Shown in pieces: positions 11,229 through 39,415 of a stretch of 64,000 nucleotides of DNA; the stretch's first letter is position 1, and each line of letters starts with the position of its first letter. The translations under genes and the position numbers were made by a program. The notes under the pieces are model-generated. The model searched no databases and was not told the DNA's origin. It saw only the letters and a list, made by a program, of their open reading frames with translations. The DNA comes from Betaproteobacteria bacterium (GTDB lineage Bacteria > Pseudomonadota > Gammaproteobacteria > Burkholderiales > SG8-41), in NCBI GenBank assembly GCA_947486575.1, contig CANKUB010000004.1:22304-86303 (forward strand). The letters are read 5' to 3'.

Positions 11229-11236
11229 AAAAATAT

Positions 11237-11256: not shown

Positions 11257-11279
11257 AGTTCTCTGTGTAACTACCTAGT

Positions 11280-11963: not shown

Positions 11964-14063
11964 TCACGATGGATTCCGCGCCAGCAAAAACGCCCGCAGC
12001 GCCTGCGGGTCCAGCGGACGCGAAAAGAAATATCCCTGAATTTCGTCGCATTCGTTTTCGCGCAGAAAATCAAGTTGATCTTCGGTTTCAACGCCTTCCG
12101 CGATCACCTTCAAATCGAGCGCATGGCCCAACTGAATAACCGCGCGCGCGATTGCTGCGCCGTCGCTGGATGAATTCACTTCGCGCGTGAACGATTGATC
12201 GATCTTCAATCGATCAATGGGAAACCGCCGCAGATAACTCAGGCTGGAATAGCCGGTGCCGAAATCATCGATCGCCATCATCAGGCCCAGGCTTTTCAGC
12301 TCTTTGAGTTTGGTGACTACCGAATCGACATCTTTCATTGCCAGACCTTCGGTGATCTCCAGTTCCAGGTGTCTGGCGTCAAGGCCGGTGTGCGACAGAA
12401 TGTCAGCCACTTTGAGTATCAGCCGCTCGTCACGAAACTGGCGCGGCGACAGGTTGACGGCCACATGGCCAATCGCAAAGCCTTCGTCCAGCAGCGCTTT
12501 GGTTTCACGGCAGGCCTCTTCCATTACCCAACTGCCTATGGTCACAATCAGATCCGACTCTTCCGCTACCGGAATAAAACGGCCCGGTGACACCATGCCC
12601 ATCTCCGGGTGCTTCCAGCGTACCAGCGCCTCCATGCCGATGACGCGATCATCCTTTGCGTCGACCTGCGGCTGGTAATGCAGCTGCAACTCGCTGTTGT
12701 CCACGGCGCGGCGCAAGTGCGCCTCCATCTGCAGGCGTTCCTCGGTAAAGCGGTCGCTGTCAGCCGAGTAAAAATAATAACAGTCACCCCCCAGCGTGCG
12801 TGCGTGCCGCATCGCGGTATCGGCACGGCGCAATAAAGTTTCAGGGTCGGGGCCGTCATTCGGATACAGCGCGCACCCCACACTGCAGGTAACGACGACT
12901 TCCTGTTCGCCGATCATGAACGGCGCACGCACGGCGCTCAGTACGCGTTTCATCGCCTGAGATGCACCACCGAGGTTATCGATATCAATCAGCGTCATGG
13001 CAAATGAATCAGCACCCAGCCGCGCCACGGAATCATGGTCGCGCAAAGCGCTGCGCAACCGCAGCGCCACGCCCTTTAATAACTCATCACCGGCGTCGTG
13101 GCCGAGGCTTTGATTGACGTACTTGAAGTGATCCACGTTAACCACGAAAGTGGCGACCATGCGTTCATAACGCTGGCCGTAGGCGATGCCGTGCCGCAGA
13201 TGGTCCACCAGCAACGGACGGTTGGCCACACCGGTCAGACTATCGTGCGTATCACGAAGCACCATCTCGTCAAGATAGTGCCGCGTCTGGGTAAAATCCG
13301 TCACCGTGCCCACCAGCGAAGTCAGTTCACCCTTGGCGTTGGACAAGCCCACGCCGCGTTCAGTGACCCAGCGCGGTGAGCCATCCGGCGATAACACGCG
13401 GTATTCGATGTTGTAGCGTGCGCCTGTGGCGAGCTGATTCTGCACATCGTGCCAGGTGATGGTGAAATCTTCCGGCGCAATAATCGATGCCCAGGTGCGC
13501 GTCGCGTTATTGACAAAATCCGCTGGCGGATAACCGGTTAAATCCAGGCAACCATCGCTGATAAATTGCATGCTCCAGCGTTCGTCAGGCAAGCGCTGGT
13601 AGACAGCCAGCGGCAGATTTTGCATAAGCGTCGACAGCATGGCCTCACTATCGCGCACCTGTGTGCGGCGTACGGCTTGTTGGGTGACATCAACCGCGAC
13701 CCCCAGCGTGCCCGTGACGCCGCCATTGCCATCGAGCAACGCCATGCGATGCGTCTCGAAATGACGGGATTGCCTCGCCGGATTAAAAATAAACAGCTTG
13801 CCGTGCCGGGCGGTTTTTGTGGCAATGACTTCGCGGTCTTGCAGCAGTGATTGCTCCGCCATTTCCAGCGGAAAAAGATTAAAGTCAGTTACATCAATAA
13901 CATCAATCTCGCCACCGGATTGGCCCAACTGAAACTCGCACATTCGGCGAAACGCGGCGTTCACCACCACGTAGCGATGCCCGGCGTCTTTCACCCACGC
14001 CGGGTCTGGCATCGCTTCGAGAAAGCTGACTGAAATCGTTTGCGCGAGGCTCTTGATATCCAT
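11964..14063 (-). CDS. PAS-PAS-GGDEF(degenerate)-EAL signalling protein, probable c-di-GMP phosphodiesterase
   Basis: Two PAS-like regions. The GGDEF position reads GADSF. The EAL domain carries EALVRW and DDFGTGYSSLSYL. Confidence 0.9.
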   Translation of the reverse strand: MDIKSLAQTISVSFLEAMPDPAWVKDAGHRYVVVNAAFRRMCEFQLGQSGGEIDVIDVTDFNLFPLEMAEQSLLQDREVIATKTARHGKLFIFNPARQSRHFETHRMALLDGNGGVTGTLGVAVDVTQQAVRRTQVRDSEAMLSTLMQNLPLAVYQRLPDERWSMQFISDGCLDLTGYPPADFVNNATRTWASIIAPEDFTITWHDVQNQLATGARYNIEYRVLSPDGSPRWVTERGVGLSNAKGELTSLVGTVTDFTQTRHYLDEMVLRDTHDSLTGVANRPLLVDHLRHGIAYGQRYERMVATFVVNVDHFKYVNQSLGHDAGDELLKGVALRLRSALRDHDSVARLGADSFAMTLIDIDNLGGASQAMKRVLSAVRAPFMIGEQEVVVTCSVGCALYPNDGPDPETLLRRADTAMRHARTLGGDCYYFYSADSDRFTEERLQMEAHLRRAVDNSELQLHYQPQVDAKDDRVIGMEALVRWKHPEMGMVSPGRFIPVAEESDLIVTIGSWVMEEACRETKALLDEGFAIGHVAVNLSPRQFRDERLILKVADILSHTGLDARHLELEITEGLAMKDVDSVVTKLKELKSLGLMMAIDDFGTGYSSLSYLRRFPIDRLKIDQSFTREVNSSSDGAAIARAVIQLGHALDLKVIAEGVETEDQLDFLRENECDEIQGYFFSRPLDPQALRAFLLARNPS
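13781..13801 (+). repeat. AT-rich dispersed motif copy (indel variant), intragenic
   Basis: GATTAAAAATAAACAGCTTGC lies inside the minus-strand GGDEF/EAL gene, where it encodes …KLFIFN…. Confidence 0.45.
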
Positions 14064-14128
14064 TTTGATTTAAGCCCGTGCCACCGATGGCGCACGCGTT
14101 AATGCATCGATCCACGGCATGACGTTGA

Positions 14129-15106
14129 TTATTTTTCTACGCGAAGATTCGCGTCCTTGATTAATTTGCCCCACCGCGTAGTCTCGCTCGCCATGAAGGC
14201 GCCGAACTGCTCCGGCGTACTGGAAATCGCGGCAACGCCGAGTTCGCCCAGGCGGGATTTCACATTTTGCGTGGCCAGTGCCTTGACCAGATCGGCATTT
14301 ACTTTGTCGATAATCGGACGCGGCACGCCTGCCGGGAACAAAATGCCCCACCAGTTCACCGCAGCAAATCCTTTCAAGCCGGCCTCGGCGAGCGTGGGCA
14401 GTTCCGGCGTAAATGGCCAGCGCTCCTCGCTGGTAACTGCCATGGCGCGCAACTTGCCGGTTTTCATCGCCTGCATCGCAGGCAATGCATCGGAGAACAT
14501 GGTGGTGATCTGCCCGCCCATGATGTCGGTAATTGCCAGTGCGTTACCTTTGTACGGAATGGTAATCAGCTTGACGCCAGCGATCTGCTGAAACATCTCA
14601 CCGGCAAAATGCGACATGCTGCCAGGGCCGCTGGTGCCATACGTCAACTCGCCGGGGCGCGCCTTGGCGAGCGCCACCAGATCCTTGATGGTTTTCACCG
14701 GCATCGTCACCGGCACCACCAGAATATTGGCGGAGTTGGTAATACGCGATACCGGCGCGAAATCTTTTTGCCAGTCGTAATTCACCTTGGCCAGCAATGG
14801 CTTGGCCACCACCGGGCCGAAATTGCCGAGCAAAAATGTATAGCCATCAGCGGGCTGGCGCGCGGCATATTCCATGCCGATGGAACCATCGGCGCCGGGC
14901 CGTGATTCGACGATCACTTGCTGGCCCCAGTATTCAGAAAGTTGCTGGCCGATAATTCGCGCCATCACATCGGAGCTGCCGCCCGCCGGATAGGTGACGA
15001 TAAAGCGCACCAGCTTACTGGGATAGTTTTGCGCTTGCGCAAATCCGCAACCCAACATCAGTGCCGGAACCGCAGCGCTCAACCCAATCCTGATGAATCG
15101 ATTCAT
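14129..15106 (-). CDS. Bug/TctC-family periplasmic substrate-binding protein
   Basis: Signal peptide followed by the family N-terminal block (YPSKLVRFIVTYPAGGSSD). Confidence 0.85.
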   Translation of the reverse strand: MNRFIRIGLSAAVPALMLGCGFAQAQNYPSKLVRFIVTYPAGGSSDVMARIIGQQLSEYWGQQVIVESRPGADGSIGMEYAARQPADGYTFLLGNFGPVVAKPLLAKVNYDWQKDFAPVSRITNSANILVVPVTMPVKTIKDLVALAKARPGELTYGTSGPGSMSHFAGEMFQQIAGVKLITIPYKGNALAITDIMGGQITTMFSDALPAMQAMKTGKLRAMAVTSEERWPFTPELPTLAEAGLKGFAAVNWWGILFPAGVPRPIIDKVNADLVKALATQNVKSRLGELGVAAISSTPEQFGAFMASETTRWGKLIKDANLRVEK

Positions 15107-15212
15107 TTCTCATCCTTATTTTATTGACGGCAAATTTAACATGTAATTTACCGCAAGCCCCGCTACCGGTGCATCAACCCCACCGTTAACCTGACATCAA
15201 GTTGAAGAAACC

Positions 15213-15232
15213 GTAACTTATTGTATTTATTG
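15213..15232 (-). repeat. AT-rich dispersed motif copy
   Basis: The reverse complement CAATAAATACAATAAGTTAC matches 17/20, with flanks CCG… and …AGATATT. It lies downstream of hemW. Confidence 0.75.
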
Positions 15233-15248
15233 AGATATTCTCAGTATA

Positions 15249-16454
15249 TTAAGTACCGCTATCCGGTAGGAACGTCTGTAGCAGTTCGTTTAAAAACCGC
15301 CGCCCCTGTAGCGTGGGTGAGACGCGTTGATGATCGCGCGTAATGAATCCGCGCCGCTCAGCGTCTTCCAGCGCGCGCAAAAGTCTTGTCAGCGGCACAC
15401 CCGCGCGCTCGGCAAACAGGCTCACTTCAAAGCCGCCCGTTAAACGTAACGCGTTCATCATGAACTCAAAGCCGATATCAGTGGCGCTGACCTCATGGGA
15501 TTCCTGGACTGCGTTGCCCGCAATTGCTTTTTCCATGAATTGCTTCGGCTGGCGGTAACGTACTTCGCGCAGCACGCGATCGGGAAATGAAATTTTGCCA
15601 TGCGCGCCTGCGCCGATGCCGACGTAATCACCGAACAGCCAGTAATTCAAATTGTGTTTGCAGCGCGCGCCAGGCCGCGCGAAGGCGGATGTTTCATAGT
15701 TATCATAACCATGTGAGGCAAGCAGGGCTTCGATTTCAATTTGCATCTCGGCAGACGTATCATCATCCGGCAACTTGGGCGGATAACGATGAAAGTACGT
15801 ATTCGGCTCCAGCGTCAGGTGATACGCCGAAAGATGCGGTGGTTTAAAAGTCAGTGCCGTTTTGATATCGGCCAGCGCTTCTTTGATGCTTTGCTGCGGC
15901 AGGCCGTACATTACATCCAGATTGAAATTATCAAAATGCTCGCACGCGATGTCGATGGCGCGTCGCGCCTGCGTGTCGTCGTGGATGCGCCCCAGCGCTT
16001 TCAAATGCTGAGGATTAAAACTTTGGATGCCGAGCGATAAACGATTCACACCCGCTGCGCGATAATCACGAAAGCGCGCCGCTTCAACCGTGCCGGGATT
16101 CGCCTCCAGCGTAATTTCCGCATCGGGCGTCAATGGCAAGCGTGCGCGCACGGCGGCGAGAATGTCATCCACTGTCGCACCGGACAGCAAACTCGGCGTG
16201 CCCCCACCGAAAAACACTGTGCTGATGCGTCGCCCCCATACGCGCGGCAATGTCTGCTCGAAATCCGCAATCAGCGCGGCGATGTAATTTTGCTCCGGGA
16301 TTTCTGTGCCAGCGCTCTTGACCTCATGCGAATTAAAATCGCAGTAAGGACACTTTTTCAGGCACCACGGAACATGAATATAGAGAGACAGCGGCGGTAG
16401 TGCGCTGAATTTCAGCGCAGAATGATCAACAACAATGGCCGGTTGAACGCTCAT
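15249..16454 (-). CDS. hemW: Radical SAM heme chaperone HemW (HemN-like)
   Basis: CxxxCxxC motif (CLKKCPYCDF) and a HemN C-terminal domain. The 4-nt overlap with rdgB matches the conserved rdgB-hemW pairing. Confidence 0.9.
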   Translation of the reverse strand: MSVQPAIVVDHSALKFSALPPLSLYIHVPWCLKKCPYCDFNSHEVKSAGTEIPEQNYIAALIADFEQTLPRVWGRRISTVFFGGGTPSLLSGATVDDILAAVRARLPLTPDAEITLEANPGTVEAARFRDYRAAGVNRLSLGIQSFNPQHLKALGRIHDDTQARRAIDIACEHFDNFNLDVMYGLPQQSIKEALADIKTALTFKPPHLSAYHLTLEPNTYFHRYPPKLPDDDTSAEMQIEIEALLASHGYDNYETSAFARPGARCKHNLNYWLFGDYVGIGAGAHGKISFPDRVLREVRYRQPKQFMEKAIAGNAVQESHEVSATDIGFEFMMNALRLTGGFEVSLFAERAGVPLTRLLRALEDAERRGFITRDHQRVSPTLQGRRFLNELLQTFLPDSGT

Positions 16455-17068
16455 GCGACGATATTCAATCTGCCCAGTTTTACGGCAAGTTCCGCCAGCG
16501 CTTTGCCGCGATGACTGATTTTATTTTTTTCTGCCGCAGGCAATTCCGCCGCCGTTTTGTTCAACGCAGGCAGAAAAAAATACGGGTCGTAACCAAAGCC
16601 GCCGTCGCCACGCGGCGTATCGATTATTTTGCCATGCCAGCGCCCTTCAGCAATCAACGGTTCAGGATCATCCGCATGGCGCACCAACGCGATCACGCAG
16701 ACGTAGTGCGCGCCAAGGTCGCCTTTGCCAGCAAGCGACGCCATCAACTTTGCATTGTTGCGTGCATCCTGTGCTTCCCGATCGCCGGCCGCATCAGCAA
16801 AACGGGCTGAATGTACGCCTGGCGCACCACCCAGTGCATTCACGCAAATTCCTGAATCGTCTGCGAACGCGGGCAAACCCGATGCACGGCTGGCGTGTCG
16901 CGCTTTGGCCAGCGCATTTTCAATAAAGGTGCAATGCGGTTCTTCCGCCTCTGCAATGCCTAACGCCGCCTGCGAAAGTAATGTCAGCCCCAACGGCTCG
17001 CACAGTTGCTGAAACTCACGCAGCTTGCCGGGGTTGCCCGAGGCCAGAACGAGCTTATCGAATGTCAC
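16451..17068 (-). CDS. rdgB: dITP/XTP pyrophosphatase
   Basis: GNPGKLREF, FADDSG and KISHRG motifs. GTG start at 17068. Confidence 0.9.
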   Translation of the reverse strand: MTFDKLVLASGNPGKLREFQQLCEPLGLTLLSQAALGIAEAEEPHCTFIENALAKARHASRASGLPAFADDSGICVNALGGAPGVHSARFADAAGDREAQDARNNAKLMASLAGKGDLGAHYVCVIALVRHADDPEPLIAEGRWHGKIIDTPRGDGGFGYDPYFFLPALNKTAAELPAAEKNKISHRGKALAELAVKLGRLNIVA

Positions 17069-17076
17069 AAAATAAT

Positions 17077-17096
17077 CAATAAAAACAAATGCTTAC
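17077..17096 (+). repeat. AT-rich dispersed motif copy
   Basis: CAATAAAAACAAATGCTTAC matches 18/20. The 23 nt at 17076-17098 are identical to 27467-27489. The copy overlaps the rph stop codon. Confidence 0.85.
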
Positions 17097-17818
17097 GGCG
17101 CATCGAATGCGGCGTGCTGTTTAGCGATTAACGCACGGATTCCGCTTTGAGCTAACTCAATCAGTGCATCCATTTCCGCGCGCGAAAACGGCGCGCCTTC
17201 GGCAGTGCCCTGAATTTCGATCATGCCGCCGCTGCCGGTCATCACCACATTCATGTCGGTATCGCAGGTGGAGTCCTCTGCGTAATCCAGATCCAGCAGC
17301 GGCGTGCCCGCGTGTATGCCCACCGAAACCGCCGCAACGTGTTCGCGTATCGGCGATGCTGCAATCAATTTTTTTGCCAGCAATCCACTGACCGCATCAT
17401 GCAGCGCAACGAACGCCCCAGTGATGCTCGCGGTGCGCGTGCCACCATCGGCTTGCAGCACATCACAATCCAGATGAATCGAGCGCGGCCCCAGCGCATT
17501 TAAATCCACTACCGCGCGCAGCGACCTGCCGATCAGGCGTTGTATCTCTTGCGTGCGCCCCGATTGTTTGCCGCGTGCCGCTTCACGATCCATACGTGTG
17601 TGCGTGCTTCGCGGCAGCATGCCGTACTCTGCCGTCACCCAGCCTTGCTGCGTGCTACGCAAATGCGGCGGCTGTTTTTCCAGCACGCTTGCCGTACACA
17701 ATACCTTGGTGTTGCCGCTTTCGATCAGCACGGATCCTTCGGCGTGACACGTATAGTTGCGCGTGATGCGGATGGTGCGCAATTCGTCGGGTTTTCTACC
17801 GCTGTGACGTGTGCTCAT
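17093..17818 (-). CDS. rph: Ribonuclease PH
   Basis: [14 protein letters not shown]…HAEGSVL… and the rest follow the RNase PH pattern. The internal ATG at 17818 is preferred over the ORF-track start. Confidence 0.9.
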
Positions 17819-17856
17819 GCTATCTTCTCGTTTCAATCAATGAAAGCGGATTATAC

Positions 17857-18738
17857 GTGAGCACTCCTCAAACGATTTACAGCATGACCGGTTATGGCAT
17901 CGCCACCCGCGAACTGCAAAGCGGCACGCTCACGGTGGAAATCCGTGCGGTGAACAACCGCTACCTCGACATACAGTTCCGTCTGCCGGAAGAATTGCGC
18001 GCGGTTGAGCCCACGCTGCGGGAATTGCTGGCCGCCAAATTGACGCGCGGCAAGATCGAATGCCGCATCGCCATGGCCGCATCAACGGCCACACCTGCCG
18101 CAGCCGAATTAAACCAGATCATGCTGCAACAACTCGCCACACTCAATGCGCAAGTGCTGAAAGTATTTCCGCAGGCCGGTAGTCTGCGCGCAGCCGACGT
18201 GCTGCGCTGGCCCGGCATACTGGGCGCGGACACCCTGCCCGCCGACGCATTGCGCAACGCCTGTCGCGATGCCACTGCTGCAGCGCTCGAAGAATTCATG
18301 GCAGCGCGCGCGCGCGAAGGCGCAAAACTGAAAGACGCGATTCTGCAACACGCCGGCGCCATTGAAACGTGCGTCGCGGGGCTCGCGCCGCGCATGCCAG
18401 CAGCTATCGCCGCGTTCCAGGAAAAACTCAATCTGCGCCTGAAAGAGGCATTGATTAACATTGACGACGAACGCATTCGTCAGGAAGTGGTGCTCTATGC
18501 CGGCAAAATCGATGTCGATGAAGAGCTAACCCGGCTGAAAACCCATATGAGCGAATTGCGACGCATCCTTGCCAATGGGGGCGCAGCGGGCAAGCGGCTG
18601 GATTTTCTGATGCAGGAATTAAACCGCGAAGCCAATACACTGGGGTCAAAAGCCGCTGACATTGAAATCACGCAGGCGGCTATGGATTTGAAATTGCTGA
18701 TCGAGCAGATGCGCGAGCAAATACAAAATATCGAGTGA
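17857..18738 (+). CDS. yicC: YicC family stress-induced protein
   Basis: …IYSMTGYG… N-terminus and the conserved C-terminal NREANTLGSKA motif. The start is GTG 17857 or ATG 17884. Confidence 0.8.
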   Translation: MSTPQTIYSMTGYGIATRELQSGTLTVEIRAVNNRYLDIQFRLPEELRAVEPTLRELLAAKLTRGKIECRIAMAASTATPAAAELNQIMLQQLATLNAQVLKVFPQAGSLRAADVLRWPGILGADTLPADALRNACRDATAAALEEFMAARAREGAKLKDAILQHAGAIETCVAGLAPRMPAAIAAFQEKLNLRLKEALINIDDERIRQEVVLYAGKIDVDEELTRLKTHMSELRRILANGGAAGKRLDFLMQELNREANTLGSKAADIEITQAAMDLKLLIEQMREQIQNIE

Positions 18739-18795
18739 CATTTCACAACGGAACGCACAATCACCCTGCTACTTGTGCCGATTGCCATTCAATCC

Positions 18796-19842
18796 ATGAC
18801 GAAAAATATCACCTCACTTACGATCACCCGCCCCGACGATTGGCACCTGCATTTGCGCGATGGCGACTATCTGCGCGCGGTGTTGCCCGATACGGCAAAA
18901 CGGTTTGCGCGCGCCATCGTGATGCCCAATCTCAAACCGCCCGTAACAACGGTTGCGCGGGCGTTGGCTTATCGGCAACGCATTCTTGATGCGCTGCCAG
19001 CGCAGTTACGCTTTGAACCGCTGATGACGTTATACCTCACTGACAACACGCGGCCTGAAGAAATTATTCAATCAAAACAAATAGATAGTATTAAGGCTGT
19101 CAAGTATTACCCGGCCGGTGCGACCACTAACTCTGACGCGGGCGTGACCGATCTGGCGCGTTGTGCCGCCGTGCTCGAAGCGATGCAGGAAACGGGCTTG
19201 CCACTGCTGGTGCATGGCGAAGTGACGGACGCGGCGGTGGATATTTTTGATCGTGAGCGGGTGTTCCTGGAGCGTGAACTTGCGCCACTGATGGCGCGTT
19301 ATCCGCGCCTGAAAATTGTCGTCGAACATATCACCACGCGCGAGGCGGCGCAGTTTGTGATGGCTGCACCCGCAAATATCGCGGCGACGATTACGTCGCA
19401 TCACCTGTTACTCAATCGCAATGCGTTGTTTGCGGGCGGCATGCGGCCACACAATTATTGTTTGCCGGTGTTAAAGCGCGAGGTGCATCGTGAAGCACTG
19501 GTGGCGGCGGCAATCTCTGGCAATGCAAAGTTTTTTCTGGGCACTGACAGCGCGCCGCACGCGCGGCATACCAAAGAAGTGGATTGCGGTTGCGCGGGCT
19601 GCTATACGGCGCACGCGGGCATTGAGCTTTATGCTGAGGCGTTTGAGGCAGCGGGGGCGCTGCATAAATTGGAGGGTTTCGCCAGTCACTTCGGTGCGGA
19701 TTTTTATGGCCTGCCGCGCAACAGTGAGACCATCACGCTGGTAAAAGAAGCGTGGCGCGTGTCGATGGATGTGGCGTATGGGGATGACCGGCTGACGCCG
19801 TTTCGTGCGGGCGGCGAAATCAGTTGGACGTTGACGGTTTGA
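18796..19842 (+). CDS. pyrC: Dihydroorotase (homodimeric type)
   Basis: DDWHLHLRD metal-binding motif, [11 protein letters not shown] and FLGTDSAPH. Confidence 0.9.
19069..19088 (+). repeat. AT-rich dispersed motif copy, intragenic (pyrC)
   Basis: CAATCAAAACAAATAGATAG matches 17/20 and encodes …IQSKQIDS…. Confidence 0.6.
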
Positions 19843-19892
19843 TGCCGTAGATTTGTAGGTTGGCCAACCGTGGCTGCGTGCTACCATCGCCC

Positions 19893-20246
19893 GTGAAGTC
19901 AGCCAGACAGTCGCTGTGTACAGGTAATGCTGTGCATGGAGGAAAGTCCGGGCTCCATAGAGCAGGGTGGCGGGTAACACCCGTCCGTTATAAGCCGTGG
20001 GCGCAAGCCTGCGGTGAAGGCGAGGAATAGGGCCACAGAGACGAGTCCTGGCGCGCAAGCGTCAGGGGTGAAACGCGGCAACCTCCACCCGGAGCAACAT
20101 CAAATAGGCAAGCGTTGAGGTGGCTCGCTGAGCTTGCGGGTAGGTGGCTAGAGCCGTGGAGTAATTCACGGCCCAGAGGAATGGCTGTCAGGGTCTGCGT
20201 CATTGGGGCCCCATACAGAACCCGGCTTACCGGCTGACTTCACTTC
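19893..20246 (+). ncRNA. rnpB: RNase P RNA, bacterial type A
   Basis: The P1 stem pairs GTGAAGTCAGCC with GGCTGACTTCAC. Universal blocks GGAAAGTCCGGGCTCCATAG, CCACCCGGAGCAA and ACAGAACCCGGCTTA are present. Confidence 0.88.
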
Positions 20247-20292
20247 ACGCTAATTTCCGCGCGGGTGTCGGTTGCTCGTGCACCGCCGCGAT

Positions 20293-21264
20293 TCAATCCA
20301 GCTTCAGCCCCGTAGCCTTGATAACCTTCGCCCACTTCGTCACATCATCCCGAATGGTGCGGGCGAATTCATCGGGGGTGGTGGTGATCGGCTCAGCGCC
20401 CTGACTCGAAAAGCGCTCGGCGATCTCCGGATTTTTCATGGTTTTTGTAATTTCTGCGTGCAAACGATCGATGATTTCGCGCGGCGTGCCTGCGGGCGCG
20501 AGCACGCCGTACCAGGTGCTTACGGATGCCTCAGCCAGACCGCCTTCGCTGATGGTCTGCAACTGCGGCAGCGTGGGCAGTCGTTTGGTTCCGGTCGTCG
20601 CCACTGCGCGCAGCCTACCCGCCTGTATCTGCGCGAGCGCGGGCGGCAGGCCGGTGAATACAATATCCAACTGTCCGCCCATCAGATCGGTTAACGCTTC
20701 GGCGTTGCCTTTATACGGCACATGCACGAGCTTAATACCGGCAGCCAGATTGAGTAATTCACCCGCCATGTGATTGGTGGTGCCGATGCCCGGCGAACCG
20801 TAGTTGAGTTTGCCGGGGCGTGCTTTCGCTACCGCAACCAGCTCTTTTATATTACGCGCGGGCACGTTCGGATGCACCACCACGATCATCGGCCCGGTGG
20901 CGAGCGTGGTGATGGGCGCAAAGTCTTTCACCGGATCAAAGGGCTTGCGCGCATACAGGCTGGGGTTGACCGCCAACGGCCCCAACGCGCCGATCACCAG
21001 CGTATAGCCGTCCTTGCCCGACTTGGCCACTGATTCAAGACCAATCGCGCCGCCCGCGCCGGAGCGGTTTTCGACAATCACCGGCTGGCCCAGCGCTTCT
21101 GAAAGTTTGGGGGCAATCGTGCGCCCCATGATGTCAATGGTGCTGCCGGGCCCGAATGGCACAACGATGCGCACCGGCTTAGCGGGAAACGGTTGCGCGT
21201 GCGTCAAGTCGGCGAACCCTGCGGCGGCGGCTGCCGCGCACAGAAATTTGAGCGTGATGTTCAC
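20293..21264 (-). CDS. Bug/TctC-family periplasmic substrate-binding protein
   Basis: Signal peptide plus PAKPVRIVVPFGPGSTID block. Confidence 0.85.
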   Translation of the reverse strand: MNITLKFLCAAAAAAGFADLTHAQPFPAKPVRIVVPFGPGSTIDIMGRTIAPKLSEALGQPVIVENRSGAGGAIGLESVAKSGKDGYTLVIGALGPLAVNPSLYARKPFDPVKDFAPITTLATGPMIVVVHPNVPARNIKELVAVAKARPGKLNYGSPGIGTTNHMAGELLNLAAGIKLVHVPYKGNAEALTDLMGGQLDIVFTGLPPALAQIQAGRLRAVATTGTKRLPTLPQLQTISEGGLAEASVSTWYGVLAPAGTPREIIDRLHAEITKTMKNPEIAERFSSQGAEPITTTPDEFARTIRDDVTKWAKVIKATGLKLD

Positions 21265-21528
21265 GGTAATCCTTATGAGTTGCGGTGAGTGATTTTAAGG
21301 CCGCGGCACGGCATCGCCTGCCAAATCCTGCTAACAGGCGAGCAAGGATGGACAGGGTAACCAGGATATTTCGACAAAATCCGGCGAGCGCACACTAAAT
21401 CCTGCTGGTTTTGTGCCGCGAAACTTTCGCGCGTCGAATTTTATGTTGCAGTACCGCAACGTACCGCAATTCCCCATGTTTTCGTACGCTCAGCGTACAT
21501 ACTTAAAGCGTTACTTTTGGAAATATTT

Positions 21529-21548
21529 GTAACTTATTGTTTTTATTG
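21529..21548 (-). repeat. AT-rich dispersed motif copy
   Basis: The reverse complement CAATAAAAACAATAAGTTAC matches 18/20. It lies in the dcw upstream region, about 270 nt before mraZ. Confidence 0.8.
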
Positions 21549-21662
21549 TATTTAATTTTTCTGAAACAAGCTTGTTTTAGGCTTCATTTTTGCACTTAAG
21601 TCATTGTCAACAAAAAGAAAATCCCTATTTTTGAGGGCTTGTAAAAATGTACCTTCCCCAAG

Positions 21663-21687
21663 GTGGTAAATAGTGGTAAAAAGTGGG
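21663..21687 (+). promoter_or_regulatory. Putative MraZ operator: three direct GTGG(T/G) repeats at 10-bp spacing
   Basis: The sequence GTGGTaaataGTGGTaaaaaGTGGG lies about 115 nt upstream of mraZ. It matches the known arrangement of MraZ-binding direct repeats in dcw promoters. Confidence 0.6.
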
Positions 21688-21799
21688 AAACACCGCTGGA
21701 AATCGCTTAGTTGCAGTACCGGGGCGGCGTTTGTGAGTGAGTACACACATAAGCGGCATAAACGGTTATTTGCGCGGTCAAATCAGTTCGGGGAATTCA

Positions 21800-22242: not shown

Positions 22243-22246
<4 letters not shown>
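21800..22246 (+). CDS. mraZ: Transcriptional regulator MraZ
   Basis: Two halves with [10 protein letters not shown] and [11 protein letters not shown] motifs. GTG start at 21800 after a GGGGAA RBS. Confidence 0.9.
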
Positions 22247-23198
<952 letters not shown>

Positions 23199-23202
<4 letters not shown>

Positions 23203-25231: not shown

Positions 25232-25237
25232 GCAGTC

Positions 25238-26767: not shown

Positions 26768-28146
26768 TGCGCGTATCCGAAGCCGCGTTTGCCCTTGGTG
26801 TTGATCATCGCGGCGATAACCCGACGTTCACATCGGTCGGCACGGATAGCCGCAACGTCAAACCCGGTGAACTGTTTATCGCCCTGCGCGGCGAACATTT
26901 TGACGCGCATCAACATATTGCAGCGGCGCGGGCCGCTGGCGCCATAGCGGCAATAGCCGATGTGGCAGGCGCACCCCTTGCACCAGCCGATATGCCGCTC
27001 ATCACCGTAAACAATACGCGCAGCGCACTCACGCAACTGGCGTATGCGTGGCGCAGCCGCTTCAGCATGCCGCTGGTGGCGCTCACTGGTAGCAGCGGCA
27101 AAACGACCGTGAAGGAAATGCTGGCCGCTATTTTGCGTGAGCACGTGGGCGATGCGGTGCTCGCCACACGCGGCAATCTGAATAACGAAATCGGTGTGCC
27201 ATTGATGTTGCTGGAACTCAACGCATCGCATCGTTATGCAGTGATTGAGCTCGGCATGAATCACAGCGGTGAAATCAGCCGGCTCACGCAATTGGCGTGT
27301 CCGAATGTGGCGCTGATTAACAACGCGGGCCGCGCGCACATTGAGTATCTGGGTAGCGAGGACGCTATCGCGCGCGCCAAGGGCGAAATTTTCGAAGGAC
27401 TGTCGAGCCAGGGCGTTGCCGTGATCAATGCGGATGATGCGCACGCTACGCTATGGCAGAAATTAGTCAATAAAAACAAATGCTTACGGTTTGGCATTGA
27501 ACAACCCGCAGACATCAGCGCGCGTTACACACTAAGTGCGACTGCGACTGCGAGTGAGATGATGATCACTGCACCCACCGGCTCGGTCAACGTCACGCTT
27601 AACGCGCCGGGTTTGCACAATGTGCGTAACGCGCTGGCGGCGTGCGCGGCAGCAGTGGCGCTGAACGTACCTATAGCCGTAATCCAATCGGGCTTGTCGC
27701 GTTACAGCGGATTCAAAGGCCGTTTGCAACGCAAAGCCGCGCCGGGTGGCGCGACCATCATTGACGACACCTACAACGCCAATCCGGAATCGGTACGTGC
27801 GGCGATAGACGTGTTGGCGCACGTGCCGGGCAAACGGTTACTGGTGCTGGGCGATATGGGTGAACTGGGCGAGCGTGCGGCTGCCTGCCACACCGAGATC
27901 GGTGCCTACGCACGTCAGGTGCGTATCGAAAAGCTGTATGCGCTGGGCGAAATGTCCGCACTGACTGCGGTGGCGTTCGGCGCAGGCGCGCGCCATTTTG
28001 AGAGTATCGAAGCCCTGCAAGCGGCATTGAAGGCGGAACTCGCGCCCGACGTTACGGCACTGGTGAAGGGTTCGCGCTTCATGAAAATGGAGCGTGTTGT
28101 GGAGGCTTTGATCGCCGGTGCAAAGGAGGATTACGTATGCTCCTAG
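26764..28146 (+). CDS. murF: UDP-N-acetylmuramoyl-tripeptide--D-alanyl-D-alanine ligase
   Basis: [14 protein letters not shown]-loop and position in the dcw cluster. Confidence 0.92.
27468..27487 (+). repeat. AT-rich dispersed motif copy, intragenic (murF)
   Basis: CAATAAAAACAAATGCTTAC matches 18/20 and encodes …[10 protein letters not shown]…. Confidence 0.85.
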
Positions 28147-29222
28147 ACCTCGCACAATGGCTGGCGAAAGACATACGTTCGTTCAACGTGTTTAACTACA
28201 TCACGTTACGTGCAGTGCTGGCGTGCCTGACTTCGCTGGTCATTTCGTTCATGATCGGCCCGGCGATGATCCGCAAGTTGACTGCCTACAAAATCGGTCA
28301 GTCAGTGCGCGACGACGGTCCGCAAACACACCTAGTGAAAGCCGGCACGCCGACGATGGGTGGTGCGCTGATACTGGTGTCGATCGCGGTGACGACCTTG
28401 CTGTGGGCCGATCTGCAAAACCGCTTTGTGTGGACAGTGCTGCTGGTGACGCTGGGTTTCGGCGCTGTGGGCTGGGTGGACGATTACCGCAAAGTGGTGC
28501 ATCGCAATCCCAAGGGCCTGTCGGCGCGCGCCAAGTTTTTCTGGCAATCGGTGGTCGGTTTGGCTGCGGCGCTTTACATCGCGTATTCCAGCAATTTGCC
28601 CGCGCAAACGCTGCTGATCGTGCCGTTTTTCAAAACCATTGCTTACCCCTTGGGCATCGTGGGCTTTGTGGTGATGACCTACTGTGTGATCGTCGGCACC
28701 AGCAACGCAGTAAATTTGACTGACGGACTCGACGGTTTGGCCACCATGCCGCTGGTGATGGTGTGCAGTGCGCTGGGCGTGTTTGCCTATGTGGCAGGTA
28801 ACGCGATCTTTGCCAGGTATCTGGGCTTTCCGTTCATACCCGGTGCAGGCGAACTGCTGGTGATTTGCGCCGCCATTGCGGGATCGGGCCTCGCTTTCCT
28901 GTGGTTCAACGCCTATCCCGCAGAAGTATTCATGGGCGATGTGGGCGCGCTGGCACTCGGCGCGGCACTTGGCGTGATCGCCGTTATTGTGCGCCAGGAA
29001 ATCGTGCTGTTCATCATGGGCGGCGTGTTCGTGATGGAAACGCTGTCGGTGATTATCCAGGTAGCCTCGTTCAAGATGACAGGCAAACGGGTGTTTCGCA
29101 TGGCGCCGCTGCATCATCACTACGAACTCAAAGGCTGGAAAGAGAATCAGGTGGTGGTGCGTTTCTGGATTATCACCATGATGCTGGTGCTTGTCGGGCT
29201 GTCAACTTTAAAGTTGCGTTGA
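28137..29222 (+). CDS. mraY: Phospho-N-acetylmuramoyl-pentapeptide transferase
   Basis: Polytopic protein with an [13 protein letters not shown] motif. Confidence 0.95.
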
Positions 29223-30601
29223 TGCTGTTGAAAGGAAAGAAGGTTCTGGTGCTCGGTCTCGGTGATACAGGTTTGTCGATGACGCGCTGGCTGGCGCGGC
29301 AGGGCGCTGTTGTCTCTGCGGCCGACACACGGGATACGCCGCCACACGCGCCGCTGCTTGCGCGCGAATTGCCCGATGTGCGCGTGAGCGCAGGCGCATT
29401 CAGGCGTGATGATTTTGCGCACATTGACATGATTGCGGTCAGCCCCGGCGTTGACCCCCGCGTGGGCGAGTTGGCGGCGGCGCTCAAACGTGGCGTGCCG
29501 GTAGTGGGCGATGTAGAGTTATTCGCGAAGGCTTTGCAAGTAGGCAATGCCACGCCGGAGGTGATTGCCATTACCGGCTCCAATGGCAAAAGCACTGTCA
29601 CCGCGATGTGCGGTGCAATGTGCGTAGCCGCTGGGCGCGACACTGTGATGGCAGGCAACATCGGGCTGCCAGTGCTGGATGTGTTGACAGAAATTGAAGA
29701 CGGCACGCGCGTGATGCCCGATACCTTTGTGCTGGAGCTATCGAGTTTTCAGCTTGAAACCACGGTGAGTCTCGCGCCGGTTGCCGCAACCATGCTGAAT
29801 TTAAGTGAAGATCATCTTGATCGTTACGACAGCTACGCGGACTACGGTGCAACCAAGGCACGCATTTTTGATGGCGGTGGTGTGCAGGTGTTGAATCGTG
29901 ATGATGAACATAGCCTCGCTATGTGGCGTGCGAGGCGACGGATGACGACGTTTGGTTTGTCTGCACCGTTATCCCGTGATGAATGGGGACTGTCAGGCGT
30001 GCAGGACACCTTGTCGCTGGCGCAGGGCGAAGCCACGTTGATGCGTGTGGCCGAGTTGCCGCTGGCAGGGCTGCACAATGCCGTCAACGCGCTGGCTGCC
30101 GCCGCGCTGTGCAATGCAGCGGGCGTTCCGCACACGGCGATTACAGGCGCGCTGCGCGCCTTTAAAGGACTGCCGCATCGCGTAGAAAATATCAATAAAA
30201 TCAATAACATAACATTTTTTGATGATTCCAAGGGCACCAACGTCGGGGCAACGGTTGCAGCATTGCGCGGGATGCAGCAACCGGTGGTGCTGATCGCGGG
30301 TGGTGATGGCAAAGGGCAGGATTTTGCGCCGTTGGCAGCCGTGGCGGCGCGCGCACGTGCCGTGGTGTTGATCGGACGCGACGCGAATTTGATCGCGCGT
30401 GCGATTGAAGCCACTGGCGTAACGCTGCTGCGTGCGGGCGATATGTTTGATGCGGTAGACGTGGCGTATCGCGCAGCCAGGCCGGGCGATGCCGTGCTGT
30501 TGTCGCCGGCCTGCGCCAGCTACGACATGTTCCGCAGTTATGTGCATCGCGCCGAAGTATTTGTCGAAGCGGTGTCGCAACTCGCGCGGCGGGTGTCCTG
30601 A
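29222..30601 (+). CDS. murD: UDP-N-acetylmuramoylalanine--D-glutamate ligase
   Basis: The ATG at 29222 overlaps the mraY stop (TGATG). [11 protein letters not shown]-loop and DDSKGTN motif. The longer ORF-track start was rejected. Confidence 0.92.
30193..30213 (+). repeat. AT-rich dispersed motif copy (degenerate), intragenic (murD)
   Basis: CAATAAAATCAATAACATAAC is preceded by AAAATAT and encodes …[12 protein letters not shown]…. Confidence 0.5.
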
Positions 30602-31770
30602 TGGCGACGGCGACGCTTAAAATGCATACGGCGCCATCAGCCGTTGCGGAATTTGACCGCAGTGTCGTGTGGATCACGATACTGCTGCTGGCGCTGGGAC
30701 TGGTGATGGTGTATTCGGCGTCCATTGCCATTGCCGAAGCAGGTCGCAGCACTGGCCAGCAATCAATGTATTACCTGATGCGCCATGCGATTTTTCTGGC
30801 GGTCAGCGTGACGGCGGGATTGATTGCATTTCAGATTCCTGTCGCCACATGGCAACGATTTGCGCCGTACCTTTTTGTCGTGGGGCTGGTGTTGATTGCG
30901 CTGGTGTTGATACCGGGTATCGGGCGCGAGGTGAATGGTGCCCGGCGCTGGATTCCGCTGATATTTTTTAACTTGCAGCCGTCGGAGCTGATGAAAGTGT
31001 TTGCCGTGCTGTATGCAGCGGATTACACCGTGCGCAAGGCCGCGTTCATGCACAGTCTGCGCAAGGGGTTTCTGCCGATGTTCAGCGTGATGCTGCTGAC
31101 CGGCGGTTTGCTGCTGCGTGAGCCGGATTTTGGTGCGTTCGCCGTGATTACAGTGATCGCGATGGGCATTCTGTTCCTCGGCGGCATGAACTGGAAGCTC
31201 TTCGCTGGCCTGTTTGTCATGCTGGTGGCGGGCTTTGTGGCATTGATCTGGTTTTCGCCCTATCGCATGCAACGTGTGATCGGTTTCATGGATCCGTGGG
31301 CGGATGAATATGGCAAGGGCTATCAGTTGTCACACTCGCTGATTGCCTTCGGGCGTGGCGAATGGTTTGGCGTGGGGCTGGGTGGCAGTGTGGAAAAACT
31401 GTTTTATCTGCCCGAAGCGCACACTGATTTTCTGCTGGCGGTGATCGCTGAAGAACTCGGCTTTGTTGGCGTGCTGGCAATTGTGCTGATGTTCGTGTGG
31501 ATTGTGCAGCGCGCGTTTGCCATCGGGCGGTGTGCGGTGCTGCAAGAGCGTTACTTCGCGGCGCTGGTGGCGCAGGGCATTGGTCTGTGGATCGGCGTGC
31601 AGGCGATTATCAACATGGGCGTCAACATGGGCGTCTTGCCGACCAAAGGCCTGACGCTGCCGCTGCTATCGTTCGGTGGCAGCGCGATTGCGGCGACGTG
31701 TGTGGCGATTGCGGTGCTGCTGCGCATCGATTGGGAAGGGCGGCAGTTGGCGCGCGGGTTCAAAGTATGA
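30601..31770 (+). CDS. ftsW: SEDS peptidoglycan glycosyltransferase FtsW
   Basis: Ten-TM SEDS pattern and position in the dcw cluster. Confidence 0.9.
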
Positions 31771-32843
31771 GCCGCACCCTGATGATCATGGCAGGCGGTA
31801 CCGGCGGCCACATCTACCCTGCGATTGCGGTGGCGGATTATTTGCGCGACAAAGGCTGGCAAATTGTGTGGCTGGGTTCGCAGGCAGGCATGGAAGCGCG
31901 CATTGTGCCGCCGAAGGGTTACGCACTGGCGTGGATACGCTTTTCAGGTTTACGCGGCAAAGGCCTGTTGCGCGCGTTGATGCTGCCGTTTAATTTGCTG
32001 ATAGCGTGCGCGCAAAGCGCAGCTGCGATTTTTACGCACCGGCCCGATGTGGTGCTGGGCATGGGTGGTTATGTGGCGTTTCCCGGTGGTCTGATGGCAG
32101 CGCTGATGCAGCGTCCGTTAGTGATACACGAGCAAAATTCGGTGGCAGGTTTGACCAATCGCATGCTGGCGCGGTTTGCCAATTCCGTTTTGATGACTTT
32201 CCCAAATGCATTTAAAAACAATAAGTTAGCTAAATGGGTGGGCAATCCAACACGCGCGGATATCGGCGCGCTGGCGGCGCCTGACGCGCGCTTTGCCGCG
32301 CGCAGCGGCAAGCTGAATGTGATGGTGTTGGGCGGCAGTCAAGGTGCGGCGGTGCTGAATGACACATTACCCAAAGCGCTGGCGTTGATGTCGGAAAATG
32401 CGCGTCCGCAGGTCACGCATCAATCGGGCGCAGCGCACATTGAGGCCTTGCGTACCGCGTATGCGGCGGTGGGTGTGCAGGCGGAAGCGCTGCCGTTTAT
32501 TGACGACATGGCGGCGCGTTATGCGGCGGCTGATCTGGTGATATGCCGCGCGGGCGCATCCACAGTGACCGAAATCGCCAACGTCGGTGTGGCGTCCGTT
32601 ATGGTGCCGTTGCCGTGGGCGGTTGACGATCATCAAACCACCAATGCGCGTTATCTGGCTGATCGCGGTGCTGCGATTTTGATTCCGCAGGCAGAATTTA
32701 CGGCGGAGAAAGTCGCGGCGCTATTGCAAAGTTTCACGCGCGACAAGCTGCTGGAAATGGCTCGTGCCGCGCGCACCGCGGCCAAGCCTGACGCCACGCG
32801 CACAGTCGGCGATATTTGTGTGGAGTTGGCGCATGCGGCATAA
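31767..32843 (+). CDS. murG: UDP-N-acetylglucosamine--N-acetylmuramyl-(pentapeptide) pyrophosphoryl-undecaprenol GlcNAc transferase
   Basis: The ATG at 31767 overlaps the ftsW stop. [12 protein letters not shown] motif. Confidence 0.92.
32210..32229 (+). repeat. AT-rich dispersed motif copy, intragenic (murG)
   Basis: ATTTAAAAACAATAAGTTAG matches 14/20 of the consensus and 16/20 of the 21529 variant. It encodes …FKNNKLAK…. Confidence 0.5.
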
Positions 32844-34224
32844 AGTCAAAAGAATCCACTTCGTCGGTATCGGCGGCTCCGGCATGAGCGGCATTGCCGA
32901 GGTGCTGCTCAACCTGAATTACGATATCAGCGGGTCTGATTTATCGTCGAATACGGCCACGCGGCGGCTGGTGAGCCTGGGCGCCAAAGTGTTCGAGGGG
33001 CATGCTGCGCAAAACATTGCAACGGCCGATGCGGTAGTGGTGTCTACGGCCGTGAAAGCGGATAACCCCGAAGTGATCGCCGCGCGCGAAAAACACATCC
33101 CCGTCGTGCCGCGCGCGCTGATGCTGGCCGAATTGATGCGTCTGAAGCAGGGCATCGCCATCGCAGGCACGCACGGCAAAACCACCACCACCAGCTTGGT
33201 GGCGAGTGTGTTGGCGGAAGGCGGGCTCGATCCGACATTCGTGATTGGCGGACGGTTGAACAGCGCCGGCGCCAATGCGCGGCTCGGCAGTGGCGAGTTT
33301 ATTGTGGTCGAGGCCGATGAATCGGATGCGTCGTTCCTGCATTTGCAGCCGGTGATGTCGGTGATCACCAATATCGACGCCGATCACATGGAAACCTACG
33401 GCCATTCGCTGGAAAAATTAAAAGATGCGTTTATTGATTTCACCCAGCGCCTGCCGTTTTACGGCATGGTGGTGCTGTGTCAGGACGACGCCAATGTGCG
33501 TGACATCCTGCCCAGAATCACCAAGCCGGTGCTGACGTATGGCTTTTCGCCGGATGCGCAATTGCGCGCGGTGGATGTGCAACACAGCGGCGGGCAGATG
33601 CGCTTTCGCGCCGTTCGTAACAATGGCGAAGGTGCTACCGATTTAAATGTGGCGCTCAATCTGCCGGGCATGCACAACGTATTGAATGCGCTGGCGGCAA
33701 TTGCAGTGGCCAGCGAAGTGGGTGTGGCGGACGAAAAAATCGTCAAAGCGCTGGCGGAGTTCAAGGGCGTGGGGCGGCGTTTTCAGCGTTATGGCGAGGC
33801 CGCGCTGCCTGGCGGCGGCAAAGTATCCGTGATCGACGACTACGGTCACCACCCGGCAGAAATGGCGGCTACCGTGGCGGCGGCGCGCGGTGCATTTCCG
33901 GGGCGGCGGCTGTTGCTCGCATTTCAGCCGCACCGCTACACCCGCACCCGCGATTGCTTTGAGGATTTCGCCCACGTGCTATCCATCGTGGACGCCCTGG
34001 TGCTGACCGAAGTGTACGCTGCGGGTGAAGCGCCCATTGTTGCCGCCGATGGCCGTGCGCTGGCACGCGCTGTGCGTTTGCAAGGCAAAGTCGAACCGAT
34101 CTTTGTCGATACCGTGACCGCAATGCCGGACGCCATACGCAACGCGGCGCGGGACGGCGATGTGGTGCTGGTGATGGGGGCGGGTTCGATTGGTGGTGTG
34201 GCGGGCGCGGTGGTTGGGCAATGA
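32833..34224 (+). CDS. murC: UDP-N-acetylmuramate--L-alanine ligase
   Basis: [14 protein letters not shown] and [11 protein letters not shown] motifs. ATG at 32833. Confidence 0.92.
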
Positions 34225-35159
34225 ATATGGCAGACGCCACAAATCTGCAAAGCTTGCGTGGGGCACTGCGGCTCAACGAGCCGATGTCGAAGCACGTCAG
34301 TTGGCGCGCCGGTGGCGTGGCCGCGCGCACTTACGCGCCAGCCGATTTGGATGATCTTTGTGCATTTTTGCGCTCGATTTCACGTACAGAGGGCTTGTAC
34401 TTTGTTGGACTTGGCAGTAATCTCCTGGTACGCGACGGTGGGGTGCGAGCCACCGTCGTGTTTACGCATTGGGCGCTAAGGCAAATTACATTGCTGAGCA
34501 CGGGAGAAAGCAACATCGAAATTCATGCCGGGGCAGGCGTTGCCTCCCCCAAGGTGGCACGTTTTGCAGCGCTACATGGCGCGCAAGGGGCTGAATTTCT
34601 CGCGGGAATCCCTGGTACCATCGGCGGCGCGCTGGCGATGAACGCCGGGTGCTATGGTGGCGAGACTTGGGAGCTCGTTTCGAGCGTGACCACGATTGAC
34701 CGTGCGGGTGGTTTGCATCAGCGCGCGCCCAATGAATTTCACATCGGCTATCGCAGTGTCAAAAGTATCAGCGGTTTGGCGGACGAGTGGTTTGTGTCGG
34801 CGAACTTTAAAGTGCCGCATGGCGATGCGGATAACGCAAGTGAGAAATCTCGCAATAAAATCAAACAGTTACTATCAAAACGCATTGCCAGCCAGCCGTT
34901 GCAGCAGCCCAACGCGGGTTCGGTGTTTCGCAATCCGCTGAATGATCACGCAGCGCGCTTGATTGAAGTGTGCGGGCTCAAAGGCACACGTATCGGCGGC
35001 GCTGAAATCTCGTTGAAGCACGCCAACTTCATCGTCAACACCGGCGACGCTACTGCAGCGGATATCGAATCACTGATCGATCTGGCGCAAAACACCGTAC
35101 GCGAAAAATTCGGCATTACGCTTGAGCGCGAAGTGCGCATCATCGGGGAACACGCGTGA
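34221..35159 (+). CDS. murB: UDP-N-acetylenolpyruvoylglucosamine reductase
   Basis: FAD-binding PCMH-type N-terminus and the MurB C-terminal domain (NAGSVFRNP). Confidence 0.9.
34853..34872 (+). repeat. AT-rich dispersed motif copy, intragenic (murB)
   Basis: CAATAAAATCAAACAGTTAC matches 18/20 and encodes …RNKIKQLL…. Confidence 0.7.
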
Positions 35160-38079: not shown

Positions 38080-38096
38080 GCATGACATTTGATATT

Positions 38097-39401: not shown

Positions 39402-39415
39402 ATTTAAAAATAACT

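Follow-up and report, generated by a model that had tools for sequence, protein, structure and literature searches.

A 64,000-nucleotide stretch of contig CANKUB010000004.1 from a Betaproteobacteria bacterium (assembly GCA_947486575.1, positions 22,304 to 86,303), hereafter the window, carries 19 copies of a DNA motif of about 30 nucleotides (nt), both in the spacers between genes and inside the reading frames of conserved genes, including murF, murD, murG and murB. We class it among the dispersed DNA motifs that have a function and evolve jointly with proteins, and it is very probably a signal that is conserved in position and selected at the level of DNA. In the literature library searched, no paper contains its sequence or reports uptake signals or repeats of this kind from Burkholderiales. 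The best overall explanation, on which we are evenly divided, would be a selected bending site for a protein of the integration host factor (IHF) type, as the anatomy of the motif suggests.

The letters of the motif were rebuilt from the sites cited in the initial annotation of the window, giving the core AATAAAAACAAATAGTTA. In this DNA, which has a GC content of 58%, the core is matched 15 times with three or fewer mismatches, against 0.01 matches expected. Alignment of the window copies defines a conserved block of about 30 nt, GAAAAATATC-AATAAAAACAAATAGTTA-C, with the consensus G-AAAAA-TAT-C-AA-T-AAAA[A/T]-CAA-ATA[G/C]-TTA-Y. A 32-nt position weight matrix (PWM) finds 18 copies at a score of 20 or more, compared with 0.03 expected, and a weak copy in murG is the nineteenth, accepted because better copies lie at the matching +432 codon position in three relatives (loci L206, L207 and L209). 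A second PWM, trained solely on copies from other species, scores all 19 window copies at 13.9 or higher and has no match at 5 or higher in a 1-Mb null. A separate repeat finder run on the window recovered the motif family as its two largest direct-repeat families. Gene context was taken from a codon-usage gene map, Pfam calls on identical contigs and a Pfam scan, so that the gene identities given here are backed by Pfam; the window itself is 99.97% identical to a contig of the metagenome-assembled genome (MAG) GCA_947470465.1, which is labelled Betaproteobacteria and is TctC-rich. The motif forms no hairpin (its folding energy of -0.5 kcal/mol is no better than that of shuffled sequences) and matches no Rfam family, and no close inverted pairs of the kind that act as terminators were seen among the window copies.

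Six window copies are intragenic, all on the coding strand, within genes for a pyrC-like amidohydrolase, MurF, MurD, MurG, MurB and a ZnuA-type binding protein. A further one, at 4863-4894 (+), contributes both stop codons where two genes converge and crosses the final codons of mutY in antisense; the remaining twelve are intergenic, four on the + strand and eight on the - strand. The initial annotation had counted seven intragenic copies, of which these six stand, that in murG weakly, whereas the site proposed at 13781 in an EAL gene scores -17.6 to -40.6 with the second PWM and is not a copy; the + strand copy at 4863-4894 had been missed.

At the intragenic positions, outgroup orthologues (~45-60) have different peptides of the same length encoded by GC-rich codons. 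We aligned MurD from 50 metagenomic relatives. Ordinary relatives read LPHRVEKVAEIGGVxYYDDSKGT in GC-rich codons, in which EKVAEIGGV is the patch, and 11 taxa of 58-68% GC, whose MurD proteins are mutually 61-91% identical, have V(K/E)NINKINNI with the length unchanged, encoded as GTA AAA AAT ATC AAT AAA ATC AAT AAY ATA. The earlier suggestion that a K/N/I-rich stretch had been exchanged without change of length before the DDSKGTN block is supported by this alignment. In MurF, the outgroup peptide LAGxxRRVEF is swapped for a motif-encoded peptide of the NKNK[CY]L type of the same length, which is present in 62 of the 62 homologues at 68% identity or more, with LAGxxRRVEF below that; in the AlphaFold model of MurF (pLDDT 92.9), V-N-K-N is placed in the turn that links helix 228-234 to strand 239-243. 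In the pyrC-like protein, MRAKQSGAV (outgroup peptide AEIMRAKQSGA) is replaced by IQSKQIDSI, and in MurB SRARIKALL, a peptide already near to the motif, is replaced by SRNKIKQLL. The MurG patch sits in an indel-prone loop. The same loop in the murG of locus L130 contains a low-complexity insertion of about 23 residues (…SSLIPHPSSLIL…), and hence tolerates large changes.

The way in which the copies are accommodated by translation largely bears out what had been read from the window alone. At the consensus triplet TAG, which would be a stop, the copies carry TGC in murF, AAC in murD, AAG in murG and CAG in murB, and in the pyrC-like gene, where the motif is read one frame over, the consensus TAA is TCA. 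Among natural copies of the motif, the variant met most often likewise has TAC (Tyr) in place of TAG. The shared reading frame noted for murF, murD, murG and murB (AAT AAA AAC AAx xxx TTA) is real within the window but does not extend further, as 22 sense intragenic copies, counted over clade loci and the window, fall into frames 0, 1 and 2 in the proportions 8, 7 and 7. The same set has 22 sense and 6 antisense intragenic copies; those deep within genes are nearly all sense, and the antisense copies are confined to the ends of genes and to stretches that encode N-terminal signal peptides (KYLFLL...). This coding-strand bias is explained by antisense translation, since two antisense frames of the motif contain stops and the third gives the hydrophobic peptide NYLFLLIFF, as opposed to N-K-N-K-x-L, (Q/S)-K-Q-I or I-K-T-N-S-Y in the sense frames.

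Synonymous sites provide evidence that the DNA is constrained. In columns with an invariant amino acid, codon identity is 0.83 within the patches (26 columns) compared with 0.58 elsewhere (1085 columns), a value reached in 0 of 20,000 permutations (p<5e-5, which is optimistic as the sequences are related). For murD alone, in the 11 taxa, the values are 0.84 and 0.52, and the rare codons GTA and ATA are nearly fixed. TTA, which accounts for 5% of Leu codons, is fixed in 8 of 8 murB copies and 6 of 7 murF copies. Such unusual conservation of synonymous sites within the patches means that the DNA itself is under constraint, and together with the lineage-specific, same-length replacements this upholds the proposal of a DNA-level force that competes with protein constraint. 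None of the distant orthologues encodes the K/N-rich peptides with GC-rich codons, the observation that would have pointed to conservation of the peptide instead. The suggested search for codon-usage outliers within the genome gave a weak signal (z +0.2 to -1.6), because AAA, AAT and GAA are common here and the patches arise mainly by amino-acid replacement; it is the cross-species synonymous comparison that is informative.

The age of the sites emerges from comparison of the dcw regions of six species (MurF 68-90% identical), one of which is the motif-rich MAG JAKFYK, and one outgroup. In the six species, copies are found at matching positions, about +260 in pyrC, +693/+705 in murF, about +960 in murD, +432 in murG and about +620 in murB, with a - strand copy upstream of mraZ as well. 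The murB copy is kept in loci L124 and L204-L210, and the pyrC-like copy is common to L204, L205 and L208 and is not found in the outgroup L210. In the outgroup the sites are limited to those upstream of mraZ and in murD and murB, and taxa further away keep the murD site, by itself or together with that in murB. As the outgroups hold nested subsets of the sites, the mraZ-upstream and murD sites were gained first, then murB, and then murF, pyrC and murG. Upstream of Pmra, a related site, AAAAACAA-N4-ATA, occurs in Betaproteobacteria far outside the clade, which suggests that the reader protein may be old and widespread. The copies are hence no recent additions to the genes, their positions being conserved across the clade and the murD and mraZ-upstream sites predating it. 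The region upstream of mraZ has further conserved features: at 21597-21690, and in loci L125-L210, there is a conserved TAAGTCnTTGTC box, and the window sequence GGTGGTAAATAGTGGTAAAAAGTGGGAAA resembles MraZ operator boxes. In relatives, a CTTGACC...TATAGT promoter is followed by three GTGG[GT]A repeats, and the motif-like site lies upstream of the promoter.

To define the species range, the exact 18-mer was scanned in one genome per species, yielding at least 117 stretches with a match. Among the matches listed, 78 of 117 stretches belong to about 30 species of uncultured Burkholderiales/Betaproteobacteria represented by MAGs from lakes, glacier streams and groundwater. Several of these clade MAGs gave 6-13 stretches each among the matches listed, and the other listed matches are single and mostly from AT-rich genomes. 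The clade MAGs have 58-67% GC and about one copy of the motif per 3-4 kb, including the dcw regions of six further species.

Placement was analysed in 78 clade loci (571 kb, 144 copies), in which 87% of the DNA is coding. Despite this, only 22 of the 144 copies are genic. In tandem spacers the copies divide equally into 34 sense and 34 antisense; another 18 lie in convergent and 25 in divergent spacers, corresponding to approximately 2.2 copies per kb of tandem, 1.8 of convergent and 1.2 of divergent spacer. The window copies likewise lie on both strands in near-even numbers (10 on + and 9 on - in the overall tally, 11 and 8 when itemised). It had been proposed that all seven intragenic copies are in + orientation and that the bias follows the chromosome strand; as a general rule this fails, the only evidence for it having been the EAL site, which is no copy. 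The motif is not tied to promoters, since the densities of the spacer types are similar, and a role as a promoter or UP element was rejected on the grounds that convergent density is no lower than divergent density, both orientations are used and copies lie at widely varying distances from start codons. Inspection by eye downstream of the copies in the window showed no consistent -10 element. Our analysis shows that the motif is not a promoter element, and neither an RNA element nor a mobile insertion.

Copies cluster within 10 bp of stop codons, and 27 of the 60 with a stop on the A-tract side overlap that stop. TAA, TAG and TTA of the motif serve flanking genes as stops in the window (4863-4894, 17066-17097 and 582-613) and in loci L030, L044 and L091, giving C-termini such as ...IKTNS*. 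The TTATG at the 3' end often holds the start codon of the next gene, and gene ends and motif interlock in very short spacers. An ilvA-like threonine dehydratase gene has a motif-like patch that is kept in two species (L030 2900-2931 and L036 6370-6401), HAK(I/N)IEQKQ(Q/R)(F/L)TFVHPYD, with codons that almost all end in A or T. The homologous E. coli peptide is already Q-rich, which would suggest that some copies grow from pre-adapted peptides.

The identity of the reader was approached by comparison with known sites. The canonical IHF site is 34 bp long and comprises WATCAA, a TTR element, two ApA steps nine bp apart and a tract of 4-6 A in its 5' half (PMC1874591). The motif is similarly asymmetric and about as long (~30-34 bp), and it too combines an A-tract on the 5' side and a pair of ApA steps at a distance of 9 bp with a C-A-A core that is followed by TTR. 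In a logo built from unascertained copies, the core reads A99 A98 [A79/T20] C99 A100 A82, so that five of six WATCAA positions match; C is present in 99% and the next A in 100% of copies, and TTA at +7 to +9 in 95/99/96% (third position A96/G4). The base preceding C is A (79%) or T (20%), never G and almost never C. These positions coincide with the best-conserved positions of WATCAANNNNTTR, A being preferred over T at one of them, and the T variant, which occurs in murB (AATCAAACAGTTA), murD and many other copies, fits WATCAANNNNTTR perfectly. A TTR element lies four bases 3' of the core, with ATA in place of TTA in the older copies (murD, mraZ-upstream and pyrC). At the dinucleotide 9 bp upstream of the core AA, 129 copies have AA, 22 have TT, 8 have AT and 3 have another pair, and TA never occurs. 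An AA or TT step, one of the two that mark the proline-intercalation sites of an IHF site, is thus kept there in 87% of the non-ascertained copies; this explains why the motif has two main variants, CAATAAAAAC and TTTAAAAAC. The A-tract AAAAA, with 64-92% A per position, falls within the range of the IHF tract and begins 17 nt 5' of the C, as it does in lambda H' in our alignment; the spacing of the four elements is likewise that of H'. To our knowledge, none of the consensus sequences of H-NS, Fis, OmpR/PhoB, EbfC or Ter/Tus fits as well as that of IHF. Taken from these sequence features, the assignment of the reader as an IHF-type protein is tentative, if quite plausible.

Several observations weigh against this assignment. 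The window shows no significant enrichment of the canonical WATCAANNNNTTR (4 matches compared with 1.4 expected); the enriched form is AAACAANNNNTTR (14 compared with 0.9), and the major variant of the motif, with the core AAACAA rather than WATCAA, breaks one consensus position. Around 24 of 30 positions of the motif are constrained, many more than are fixed in E. coli IHF sites, in which 15-17 of 34 positions are constrained (PMC1874591), and the information in the motif exceeds the known need of IHF binding. The equal density in convergent spacers and the near-identity of copies across species are also expected from an uptake-type drive. Spacing in the window is only marginally more even than random (coefficient of variation (CV) 0.69, P=0.056), which is a weak hint of selection for copy density; with the intragenic copies left out the CV is 0.95 and a 16.6-kb copy-free gap over the dcw cluster would remain. 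At two good sigma-54 promoters the motif is centred 46-50 bp upstream of the GG element, an anecdotal association that is statistically indistinguishable from co-occurrence in the same spacer. A further sigma-54-type promoter match, GGCACGGCGATTGCT, lies at 58714-58728 (+) in the window, about 65 bp upstream of the gene at 58793-60085.

Most copies occupy the non-coding space that is available, in all types of spacer and in both orientations, and in the long, spacer-free dcw operon and a few other genes the site has been built into the coding sequence, by amino-acid replacements of equal length at tolerant turns and loops, and then held there. If the reader is of the IHF type, each copy would be a docking and bending site of high affinity for an IHF-type nucleoid-associated protein, and such sites may set local DNA bends and hence the architecture of the nucleoid or of operons; the older sites, upstream of mraZ and inside murD, may additionally have local regulatory roles. 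Dispersed repeats that bear IHF sites are known, namely RIP/BIME-1 in E. coli and the Correia elements in Neisseria. The motif resembles them in being mostly intergenic, often at the 3' ends of genes, and present in many copies per genome; unlike them, it stands alone without flanking repetitive extragenic palindromic (REP) sequences or terminal inverted repeats (TIRs), and is embedded and conserved in essential genes. With an IHF-type reader, these genomes would have an unusually explicit array of bending sites, conserved in position and spaced at about one per 3 kb, that is readable from MAG sequence, and constraints on chromosome architecture would become testable in uncultured bacteria.

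A second explanation, the main rival, is that the motif is a DNA uptake signal, in which a competence receptor would prefer DNA that carries it, and uptake followed by recombination would act as a molecular drive into tolerated places. This would add an unrecognised uptake signal of freshwater and glacier-stream Burkholderiales, of a third independent origin, to the uptake signal sequences (USS) of Pasteurellaceae and the DNA uptake sequences (DUS) of Neisseriaceae, which is compatible with the data but which we consider unlikely. It would account equally well for the restriction of the motif to a clade, its symmetry, its presence in any space that tolerates it and its surplus of information. 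Over-representation amounts to orders of magnitude, and the motif is clade-specific and common to about 30 species; its orientations are equal in spacers and promoter-bearing spacers are not preferred; the intragenic copies accumulate stepwise and nested along the lineage; and its information content lies beyond the need of a nucleoid protein. The length of the motif and its phased A-tracts recall the extended USS, which also speaks for a signal of this kind. The USS and DUS of Haemophilus/Actinobacillus and Neisseria are likewise short, over-represented motifs found in both orientations across a clade, whose genic copies fall on poorly conserved residues, in tolerable frames and orientations, and shift the local peptide composition (Findlay & Redfield, 2009; PMC2817400), as do the coding copies here, which lie at variable turns or loops and at weakly conserved residues. 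In contrast to USS and DUS, the motif is about 30 bp long, is AT-only save for one or two cytosines and has no GC-rich core. Only ~15-30% of its copies are genic compared with 35-65% of USS/DUS copies (PMC2817400), and the motif lacks the inverted terminator pairs in the window as well as any hairpin. Moreover, the related mraZ-upstream and murD sites extend beyond the motif-rich group, contrary to what would be expected of a receptor specific to the clade, and the motif is invariant at the same positions as IHF sites. Were the uptake signal true, the drive would be old and strong enough to recode loops of MurF, MurD, MurG, MurB and PyrC, and the phenomenon would extend beyond its two known families.

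The resemblance to IHF sites could also be coincidental and the motif be read by another sequence-specific DNA-binding protein, which we regard as doubtful. Candidates would be a nucleoid or segregation factor that has expanded in the clade, or a protein of the tandem winged-helix type that binds repeated WCAAW units of ~9-10 bp (TATCAAT / AAACAAAT / GTTAC). Such a protein would fit the recurrence of cytosines at positions 10, 19 and 29, with ATCAATAAA / AACAAATAG as a 9-bp tandem, as well as the departure of the major core AAACAA from WATCAA and the presence of more constrained positions than IHF requires. However, C10 and C29 are only 42-64% conserved compared with 99% for C19, all four IHF elements are present and correctly spaced, an arrangement that chance would seldom produce, and we know of no candidate protein, which counts against this possibility.

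An element acting in RNA, in which sense AAUAAAAACAAAUAG would form an (AAN)4 tract for the distal face of Hfq, for S1 or for RNase E entry in the processing of long operon transcripts, is very unlikely. The (AAN)n repeat in AAT AAA AAC AAA, the almost exclusively sense orientation of deep intragenic copies and the many copies that adjoin start or stop codons are in line with it, but in operon-like tandem spacers antisense copies are as numerous as sense copies, convergent spacers are equally populated, the genic sense bias is explained by translation and antisense copies do exist in signal peptides, and the motif has neither an Rfam match nor structure. A miniature mobile or repeat element of the REP, MITE or Rickettsia palindromic element (RPE) type that inserts copies, including in frame, would explain the many near-identical copies, and Rickettsia RPEs, which are palindromic in-frame insertions of 100-150 bp that add residues to the products of protein genes, are similar in being repeated DNA within conserved genes, in surface-exposed segments, that leaves the gene intact; this is hardly credible here, since the copies inside genes keep the length of the peptides that they replace, the ftsA-ftsZ spacer is not lengthened by its copy (78 bp, compared with 84 bp in a relative without one), the motif has no palindrome, TIR or hairpin and its flanks are unique, and its positions are orthologous across species.

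Irrespective of the reader, a non-coding DNA signal has been held by selection inside essential enzymes over a divergence of MurF to 68% identity, so that DNA signals can override protein sequence. The motif is also a strong taxon marker for binning, and calls for caution in annotation, since stop codons, start regions and K/N peptides of low complexity can all derive from it.

The individual intragenic copies differ in strength (scores are those of the first PWM, followed where available by the second). The copy in the pyrC-like gene (348 aa) is at 19058-19089 (+), in frame +1 (40.2 and 32.8). Within murF, the copy at 27457-27488 (+) is in frame 0 (44.4 and 41.3). That in murD, at 30182-30213 (+), directly before the DDSKGTN block, is a AAAATCAA variant with ATA as its 3' element (27.5 and 27.4). 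The degenerate murG copy (FKNNKLA) is at 32199-32230 (+), in frame 0 (12.1 and 13.9). In murB the copy at 34842-34873 (+), again in frame 0 (34.4 and 26.2), encodes SRNKIKQLL, and its core, AATCAAACAGTTA, is a perfect WATCAANNNNTTR. The copy in the ZnuA-type gene (Pfam ZnuA), at 60827-60858 (+), encodes LKNIIKKQNV in frame +1 (21.0 and 26.5) and has a 1-nt register shift within the A-run.

Several copies are interlocked with gene ends. At 582-613 (+), a copy in a convergent spacer immediately follows a terminator-like hairpin (28.4 and 21.8); the gene at 609-1298 uses the TTA of this copy, read on the - strand, as its stop codon. The copy at 4863-4894 (34.2 and 31.1), which was outside the training set of the first PWM, spans the stop codons of a histidine-kinase gene (3156-4871, +) and a mutY-like gene (4873-5796, -) whose product ends in ..SYCFK*. 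The intergenic copy at 11226-11257 (+) has a perfect 18-mer core with 0 mismatches (51.9) and begins at the TAG stop of the gene at 10425-11228. At 17066-17097 (+), the copy takes up the whole 24-bp spacer between rph and rdgB (Pfam RNase_PH and Ham1p_like; 45.5); it is antisense to both genes and overlaps the start codon of rdgB and the stop codon of rph.

The copy at 21528-21559 (-) is located about 240 bp upstream of the mraZ start (41.4), upstream of the conserved Pmra promoter and the MraZ boxes. Further along the same region, copies are found in the ftsA-ftsZ spacer, antisense to the operon (38096-38127, -; 36.1), between ftsZ and the first tctC gene (39405-39436, +; 41.0) and between two tctC genes, antisense to both (40560-40591, -; 39.4). 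Three copies lie between two - strand genes, at 1442-1473 (-; 39.3 and 34.8), in the same orientation as the genes, at 15212-15243 (-; 40.5 and 30.2) and at 51435-51466 (-; 43.6). A convergent spacer contains the copy at 49906-49937 (-), which has a perfect 18-mer core with 0 mismatches (49.5), and the copy at 58097-58128 (-) is intergenic with 1 mismatch (45.4). Three of these - strand copies (49887-49935, 58078-58126 and 51416-51464) have in common an extra 3' flank of about 20 nt, GTTAC-N4-TATC-N3-TCTGACCCT, and make up a 49-nt subfamily; one of the flanks is inside the 3' end of a convergent gene.

Other features of the window include an RNase P RNA gene (class A, 233 bits) at 19895-20245 (+), directly downstream of the pyrC-like gene, and a tRNA-Gly(CCC) gene at 8251-8324 (-). 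The region 39521-47608 contains four or five paralogous binding-protein genes of the TctC family (Bug-type) around a PQQ-dehydrogenase gene, and the coding segments that they share form the direct-repeat family D3.

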